NCBI RefSeq assembly: GCF_013315695.1
Contig: NZ_CP054353.1
Origin: Escherichia coli
GTDB lineage: Bacteria > Pseudomonadota > Gammaproteobacteria > Enterobacterales > Enterobacteriaceae
DNA length: 64,000 nt
Direction: 5' to 3' (one strand)
Both the position numbers and the translations under genes were made by a program. The notes under the pieces are model-generated. The model searched no databases. It was not told the origin of the DNA and saw nothing but the letters and a program-made list of their open reading frames with translations. Shown here in pieces: positions 35,229-35,256 of the stretch (position 1 is the stretch's first letter; each line of letters opens with the position of its first letter).

Positions 35229-35256
35229 AGATGGGGGGGATTTTGAGGGTTTCAAC
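35229..35256 (-). promoter_or_regulatory. sigma32-type heat-shock promoter for hslVU, overlapping the ftsN stop
   Basis: Minus strand reads TTGAAA - 11 nt - CCCCCATCT, matching the sigma32 -35/-10 consensus, about 70 bp upstream of the hslV start. Confidence 0.6.

Follow-up and report, generated by a model that had tools for sequence, protein, structure and literature searches.

The sigma-32-type promoter that lies across the end of ftsN in this Escherichia coli DNA is almost certainly the already published heat-shock promoter of the hslVU (clpQY) operon, hslVp. Promoter, sigma factor and leader hairpin alike have been published or catalogued before (Chuang 1993; Lien 2009; Rfam RF02401), and the only small addition made here is that the overlap between the ftsN stop codon and the -35 box appears to be frozen across the whole order Enterobacterales. 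The window is the whole stretch of DNA that was analysed (64,000 nucleotides), and its coordinates can be converted to those of MG1655 by adding 4087128. The annotated gene order is priA-cytR-ftsN-hslV-hslU-menA, within which three genes concern the promoter.

35252 to 36211, minus strand: coding sequence of ftsN, 319 aa, from the ORF list and the RefSeq annotation; the protein ends AAGG, with the codons GGG GGT and then TGA.
35255 to 35260, minus strand: the last two ftsN codons, GGG GGT, with GGG where sigma-32 promoters mostly have CCC.
34629 to 35159, minus strand: coding sequence of hslV (clpQ), with a GTG start and the Shine-Dalgarno sequence AAGGGG at 35172-35167.
33288 to 34619, minus strand: coding sequence of hslU (clpY), the second gene of the operon.

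A 301-nt query is 100% identical to many E. coli chromosomes; among 5426 complete genomes of the species it has matches in 5425, in each case under ftsN and hslV. The 54-nt promoter segment has at least 99% identity in 5190 of the 5426 genomes and 95-99% identity in a further 188.

The minus strand of 35229..35256 is GTTGAAACCCTCAAAATCCCCCCCATCT, and the wider minus-strand reading, spaced in triplets, is ...GCC GCC GGG GGT TGA AAC CCT CAA AAT CCC CCC CAT CTA TAA TTG C... The promoter and its surroundings can be divided into the following elements.

35250 to 35255, minus strand: -35 hexamer TTGAAA of the hslVU sigma-32 promoter, sharing four bases with ftsN (35255 is the wobble base of the last Gly codon and 35254-35252 the TGA stop).
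35237 to 35249, minus strand: the 13-nt spacer CCCTCAAAATCCC.
35228 to 35236, minus strand: sigma-32 -10 element CCCCATCTA, which consists of the octamer CCCCATCT (35236-35229) and then an A.
35233 to 35239, minus strand: a run of seven C that straddles the junction of spacer and -10 element.
35224 to 35229, minus strand: a perfect TATAAT, 20 nt from TTGAAA, that overlaps the -10 element at the latter's 3' end.
35220 to 35221, minus strand: the hslVU transcription start, placed at 35220 by a 454 5' end and at 35221 by the geometry of dnaKp1.

What remains of the TTGAAA hexamer beyond ftsN is two intergenic bases. A preliminary description, made from the letters alone, had placed TTGAAA across the ftsN stop on the minus strand, and that is where it lies (35255-35250, with TGA at 35254-35252). 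Its wording that the promoter is embedded in the last codons of ftsN is right in substance and slightly generous, as the hexamer holds only the last Gly base and the stop. Some of the measurements need correction. The gap given as 11 nt is in fact 12 nt from TTGAAA to CCCCCATCT (35237-35229), and the span 35229-35256 includes one extra 5' G (35256). The distance of about 70 bp upstream of hslV is correct for the -10 element, the end of which is 70 nt from the hslV GTG (35159), but not for the -35 hexamer, which lies 91-96 nt upstream of the GTG.

The architecture is that of the sigma-32 class. The -35 pattern (C)TTGAA(A) is present as TTGAAA, but with G instead of C 5' of TTGAA, and the -10 pattern CCCCATnT(A) is present as CCCCATCTA. 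The class has a spacing of 13-14 nt; here TTGAAA and CCCCATCT are 13 nt apart, as in dnaK, lon, clpB, grpE, ibpA, fxsA and the dnaKp1 scaffold. In another counting convention, credited to Nonaka et al., the same arrangement is CTTGAA-14-CCCCAT, the commonest sigma-32 spacing (PMC10044804). The window holds a single copy of the exact consensus TTGAAA-N13-CCCCATNT.

The scoring with a sigma-32 position weight matrix (PWM) that the preliminary description had put forward as a check was carried out, and the hslV site came out at the top of the window with 23.2 bits (10.3 for the -35 block and 11.8 for the -10 block). The matrix was trained on two-block sites of 12 canonical MG1655 sigma-32 promoters (dnaK, groS, htpG, lon, clpB, grpE, rpoD-Phs, ibpA, htpX, rlmE, clpP and fxsA), with hslV left out; yrfG-hslR was excluded for its poor best site (11/17). 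The training sites as located reproduce the classical promoters of all 12 genes. Against their leave-one-out scores of 8.5-23.8 bits the hslV site ranks third, with htpG and groS alone scoring higher, and within the window it exceeds the runner-up (14.8 bits) by 8.3 bits. Care must be taken in reading this number, since in random 64-kb sequences the maximum averages 17.4 bits, and one sequence in 60 attained 23.2. The score alone is thus strong but not overwhelming, and at genome scale it is not decisive; the case is made by position, orientation and conservation. A separate observation from the pattern search is a near-perfect palindrome, TTAAAAGGGGAATTAAATTCCCCTTTT, at 31676-31702, which matches the sigma-32 pattern with two mismatches and looks like a bidirectional terminator hairpin, not a promoter.

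The preliminary description had called the element a near-consensus sigma-32 promoter for hslVU; it is the published promoter, and its heat induction depends on rpoH (PMC2681174). Lien et al. 2009 (PMC2681174), who credit the original identification to Chuang et al. 1993 (Gene 134:1), studied the same locus and the same bases as the window feature: their primers F1 and F3 contain CCGGGGGTTGAAACCCTCAAAATCCCCC(C/T)CATCTATAATTGC, which corresponds to window 35262-35221. Using wild type, rpoH, rpoS and double-mutant strains with lacZ fusions and northern blots, they found that heat induction of hslVU is lost in rpoH mutants and kept in rpoS mutants. A C-to-T change in the -10, which turns CCCCATCT into CCTCATCT (primer F3), resulted in no heat induction, and the activity of this mutant at 30 C was down only 1.7-fold (PMC2681174). 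Basal hslVU expression persists in the rpoH mutant (PMC2681174), and a second weak promoter may contribute to it. Shortening the promoter fragment from 478 to 141 bp, so that it starts at CCGGGGGTTGAAA just 7 nt before TTGAAA, left the activity unchanged (PMC2681174); therefore nothing upstream of the -35 is needed. Transcript data are also available, as SMRT-Cappable-seq recovered transcription units for hslV-hslU and cytR-ftsN as well as read-through over ftsN-hslV-hslU. In Shimada 2017 the genomic SELEX table for RpoH does not contain hslV, but it is uninformative on this point because htpG, clpB and grpE are missing from it as well.

Of the three start sites in circulation for hslVU, one fits the same -10 element. 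A 454 5' end for hslV lies at -61 (35220, an A), seen as a single read (Mendoza-Vargas 2009; PMC2760140 Table S1). This end is 9 nt past the -10 octamer, where a sigma-32 start is expected at about 7-9 nt. In the sigma-32 RPo structure, dnaKp1 is numbered with CTTGAA at -35..-30 and CCCCATTT at -15..-8 (PMC10216364), and this geometry applied to hslVU puts +1 at about 35221. Other values can be found in the literature. The table that lists the -61 end marks it as 'Known' and gives a promoter distance of 6 (PMC2760140 Table S1), which implies a previously known start at -67 (35226). Lien 2009 quotes a start 71 nt upstream of the GTG (35230), citing Chuang 1993 (PMC2681174), and F5, the primer used there for the '71-nt' leader, in fact starts 74 nt before the GTG. 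The -67 and -71 starts lie 6-10 nt upstream of -61, within the -10/TATAAT itself, where no promoter that uses this -10 could start; we read them as imprecise early mapping. In the parts of the supplements of Kim 2012, Ettwiller 2016 and Cho 2014 available to us there is no entry for an hslV start. No start data favour a different hslVU promoter, and a start mapped elsewhere, named in the preliminary description as the result that would speak against it, is not what the single-read 454 end at -61 indicates. The start site remains the weakest link of the promoter assignment, with -61 resting on one read.

The perfect TATAAT at 35229-24 invites a different view, in which the main promoter is of the sigma-70 or sigma-38 type, with TTGAAA as its -35 (and CTATAAT as the RpoS form of the -10), and the sigma-32 appearance is secondary. 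We consider this improbable. TATAAT is certainly a perfect -10, and the -61 start has been annotated with sigma-70 matrices as GGGTTGAAA/TCTATAAT (PMC2760140), but with a 20-nt gap, and a 20-nt distance between TTGAAA and TATAAT is outside the working range. Moreover, the -61 start comes just 4 nt after TATAAT, and a consensus scan of 34900-35600 found no sigma-70-type promoter. A sigma-70 element as the main promoter was rejected on the absence of a scan site and the 20-nt gap. For RpoS there is a weak RpoS-holoenzyme SELEX peak in the hslV-ftsN spacer (Shimada 2017), and the expression that remains in rpoH mutants (PMC2681174) can be counted in favour of either sigma factor. Despite the weak peak, the RpoS reading was rejected on the data of Lien et al., in which neither the rpoS mutation nor a change in the presumed RpoS -10 had any effect and loss of rpoH abolished induction (PMC2681174). 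The comparison of relatives points the same way: TATAAT is absent in Erwinia, Pantoea and Tatumella, which have CCCCATATCTG, but CCCCAT is kept there. TATAAT is probably not the main hslVU promoter element, although it may support some basal transcription. The SELEX peak itself has a strength of 3.6, lies at about 4120330 in MG1655 (U00096.2) and fits the CTATAAT overlap.

Mutations selected in the laboratory also bear on the sigma-70 question. Two independent heat-adaptation studies found the run of seven C altered: it carries a 2-bp deletion in the heat-evolved strain BM28 (PMC10044804) and, in REL606 rescue lines, a 1-bp deletion at -74/+19 that maps to 35233 (PMC7750951 Table 1). Deletion of one or two C shortens the distance between TTGAAA and TATAAT from 20 to 19 or 18 nt, and the loss of 1-2 C in heat-evolved strains can be counted in favour of a sigma-70 element. 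As the authors of the BM28 study suggest (PMC10044804), such deletions could shift the hslVU promoter toward sigma-70 use. The C run is thus a recurrent target in heat-adaptation experiments, and this is relevant to the interpretation of such mutations.

The conservation of the sigma-32 promoter can be followed upstream of hslV in relatives. We collected 80 loci of close HslV relatives from contigs of one genome per species and scored the 220 nt in front of each hslV with the PWM. The best site is the same two-block motif in 79 of the 80, with a score of at least 22 bits in 59. The exception is the reduced endosymbiont Candidatus Gullanella endobia (L087), where the motif is lost and the best site scores 5.3 bits. 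TTGAAA lies over the ftsN stop in the exact E. coli register in 67 loci, which amount to 65 distinct Enterobacterales sequences. The genera in this overlapping set include Escherichia, Citrobacter, Enterobacter, Serratia, Yersinia, Erwinia, Pantoea and Dickeya, as well as Pectobacterium, Hafnia, Edwardsiella, Proteus, Morganella, Photorhabdus and Xenorhabdus. TTGAAA is invariant across them (65/65). The spacer is 13 nt in 57 of the 65 sequences and 14 nt in the other 8, and CCCCAT is kept in 57.

The coding side of the overlap is equally rigid. All of the sequences have GGT as the last ftsN codon (65/65) and TGA as the stop (65/65); the codon before GGT is GGG in 62, AGG in 2 and CGG in 1. Third-base entropy is 0 in the last two ftsN codons, against 0.96-1.74 bits in each of the 8 preceding ones. 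The zero wobble variation in the last two codons and the stop therefore argues that the overlap constrains ftsN codon choice, the lack of any synonymous change there being due to their second use as a -35 box. It could be argued instead that conservation comes from the coding of the FtsN C terminus only, or that the match arose by chance, so that the overlap has no regulatory meaning. FtsN does end in Gly-Gly in nearly all Enterobacterales, from which GG-GG- is expected, and the PWM score was reached once in the 60 random 64-kb sequences. However, the wobble bases of the last two codons and the choice of TGA are invariant and the eight codons before them vary; the non-coding -10 is just as conserved; GGGTTGAAA is kept in Budvicia and two Pantoea, where the ftsN stop is 85-107 nt upstream; and the genetic data show function (PMC2681174). 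The wobble analysis and the non-overlapping lineages rule out conservation by chance or by coding only, a reading to which we give next to no credence.

The preliminary description had held that the arrangement constrains both sequences. For ftsN this is borne out by the zero third-base variation over 65 sequences; on the promoter side the evidence is no more than suggestive. Next to TTGAA, 10 of 12 canonical promoters have C and hslVU has G, and by the PWM a GGG in place of CCC 5' of TTGAA is about 3.9 bits worse, which would fit a reverse constraint in which ftsN coding keeps GGG in the promoter. Coding alone does not explain the GGG, because Budvicia (L056, L060) and two Pantoea (L077, L081) retain GGGTTGAAA and the rest of the promoter without the ftsN overlap. 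In these four loci the ftsN stop, 85-107 nt upstream, follows a protein ending in AAGK or LALP, and ftsN has its own hairpin. A 24-bit site that includes GGGTTGAAA is also seen in Candidatus Hartigia (L089) and in Pantoea sp. Nvir, a Nezara symbiont (L092); in these two loci the FtsN C terminus was not detected upstream of the promoter.

More distant relatives have the promoter apart from ftsN altogether. In Vibrionaceae (L082, L085, L088, L090, L091) it lies 54-400 nt past the ftsN stop, with CCCTTGAA or ACCTTGAAA as the -35 region, and in Aestuariibacter (L086) the -35 region is GGCTTGAAA. The -10 in the Vibrionaceae and Aestuariibacter loci is CCCCAGAT, CCCCACAT, CCCCACCT or CCTCATAT. For instance, the order in Photobacterium (L082, L085, L088) is ftsN, a clean hairpin with a U-rich tract, the sigma-32 promoter and then hslV. 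Since these promoters have no ftsN overlap, the overlap with the ftsN stop appears to be an innovation of the Enterobacterales.

Downstream of the start, the hslVU leader holds a second conserved element.

35194 to 35215, minus strand: stem-loop of the 5'UTR that begins 5 nt in from the 5' end, with the form G-CCCCGTAC-UUUU-GUACGGGG-U.
35157 to 35214, minus strand: Rfam RF02401 'ClpQY_promoter', a cis-regulatory 5'UTR element, found with cmscan.

The leader folds at -23.3 kcal/mol, and the RF02401 match is full-length (1-57/57), with 63.6 bits against a gathering threshold of 42 and E = 5.9e-13. The sole other Rfam match in the region, anti-hemB, was dismissed as noise (15.5 bits against a threshold of 49.5). 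The hairpin is at the same place in all 67 overlapping relatives with very different stem sequences, and 6 of its 8 pairs have compensatory double changes in a 39-sequence alignment. Deletion of the hairpin destabilises hslVU mRNA, and a different hairpin of equal strength restores stability (PMC2681174).

Whether this hairpin also serves ftsN is a question of its own. It may double as an ftsN terminator (35186-35215, minus strand) in addition to stabilising the 5' end of hslVU. If so, it would act as a terminator or 3' stabiliser of cytR-ftsN transcripts, read-through from ftsN or ribosomes stopping on the -35 would modulate hslVU, and sigma-32 transcripts would need to read through the neighbour's terminator. 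We regard this coupling as a reasonable possibility, though we lean against it. The stretch from the ftsN stop to hslV holds no further hairpin, and the SMRT-Cappable-seq data report both a cytR-ftsN unit and ftsN-hslV-hslU read-through. Ten of the 67 relatives have 6 or more T among the 8 nt after the leader hairpin, a tail like that of a classical terminator, and where there is no promoter overlap, in Vibrionaceae, Budvicia and two Pantoea, ftsN has its own upstream hairpin. On the other hand, the E. coli U-tract is weak (UUUGUACU) and a terminator scan made no call, the Term-seq table of Adams et al. 2021, in the part available to us, has no minus-strand 3' end at the hairpin, and upstream sequence (478 against 141 bp) had no effect on reporter activity (PMC2681174). 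Across relatives the T content after the hairpin ranges from 2 to 7 T in 8 nt; loci with 6-7 T in 8 nt are found in Tatumella, Pantoea, Rosenbergiella, Dickeya and Pectobacterium (L051, L072, L084, L076, L067). In the same part of the Term-seq table, a plus-strand 3' end is listed at 35219 (MG1655 4122347), antisense to the hslV leader. It is 6 nt past the same hairpin read in the opposite direction, there is no U-tract on that strand, and it may be a processed end protected by the hairpin.

Returning to the sigma-32 reading, its steps can be set out as follows. Sigma-32 RNA polymerase would recognise TTGAAA (35255-35250) and CCCCATCT (35236-35229), 13 nt apart. Transcription would start at about 35220-35221, with the exact start one that we infer, and give a leader of about 61 nt. 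Within that leader, the hairpin that begins 5 nt in guards the hslVU message from decay. The -35 hexamer has a double role, as it also supplies the wobble base of the last ftsN Gly and the TGA stop. A broader synthesis would combine the order-wide frozen overlap with a dual-use hairpin and with the run of seven C as a slippage-prone switch toward sigma-70 (TTGAAA-18-TATAAT). The promoter would then lie upstream of its neighbour's terminator, and expression of ftsN and of the SulA-degrading protease would be physically coupled. Taken as a whole, this synthesis is tentative and on the unlikely side.

The significance of the locus is modest. The end of ftsN with its -35 box is not a new kind of element but a neat, if minor, illustration of dual coding, fit for a textbook. 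The promoter is of value as a clean positive control, in that a reading of raw sequence recovered an experimentally validated sigma-32 promoter.

Compared with known systems, the window feature has the same bases as hslVp (Chuang 1993; PMC2681174), the quoted 71-nt start being off by about 10 nt from -61. It shares the architecture of CTTGAA(A), 13-14 nt and CCCCATnT(A) with the canonical sigma-32 promoters (dnaK P1, groSL, htpG, grpE, ibpA, lon and clpB), and its PWM score is within the top quarter of that class. Where the canonical promoters have CCC 5' of TTGAA, hslVp has GGG, which belongs to the terminal Gly codons of ftsN. The rpoD Phs promoter is similar in being a heat-shock promoter in the 3' part of an upstream essential gene (dnaG). 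The best site for it lies 394 nt before rpoD, and the end of dnaG is 195 nt before rpoD, so that rpoD Phs is wholly inside codons, whereas hslVp touches the last codon and the stop by its -35 only. Rfam RF02401, in spite of its name, is an RNA leader downstream of the start and not the DNA promoter boxes of the preliminary description. Finally, like the ompA and papA mRNAs, an analogy drawn in PMC2681174, the hslVU message has a stable hairpin a few nt from its 5' end that prolongs mRNA life; unlike theirs, the hslVU hairpin comes directly after the stop of the upstream gene and may double as a 3' hairpin.
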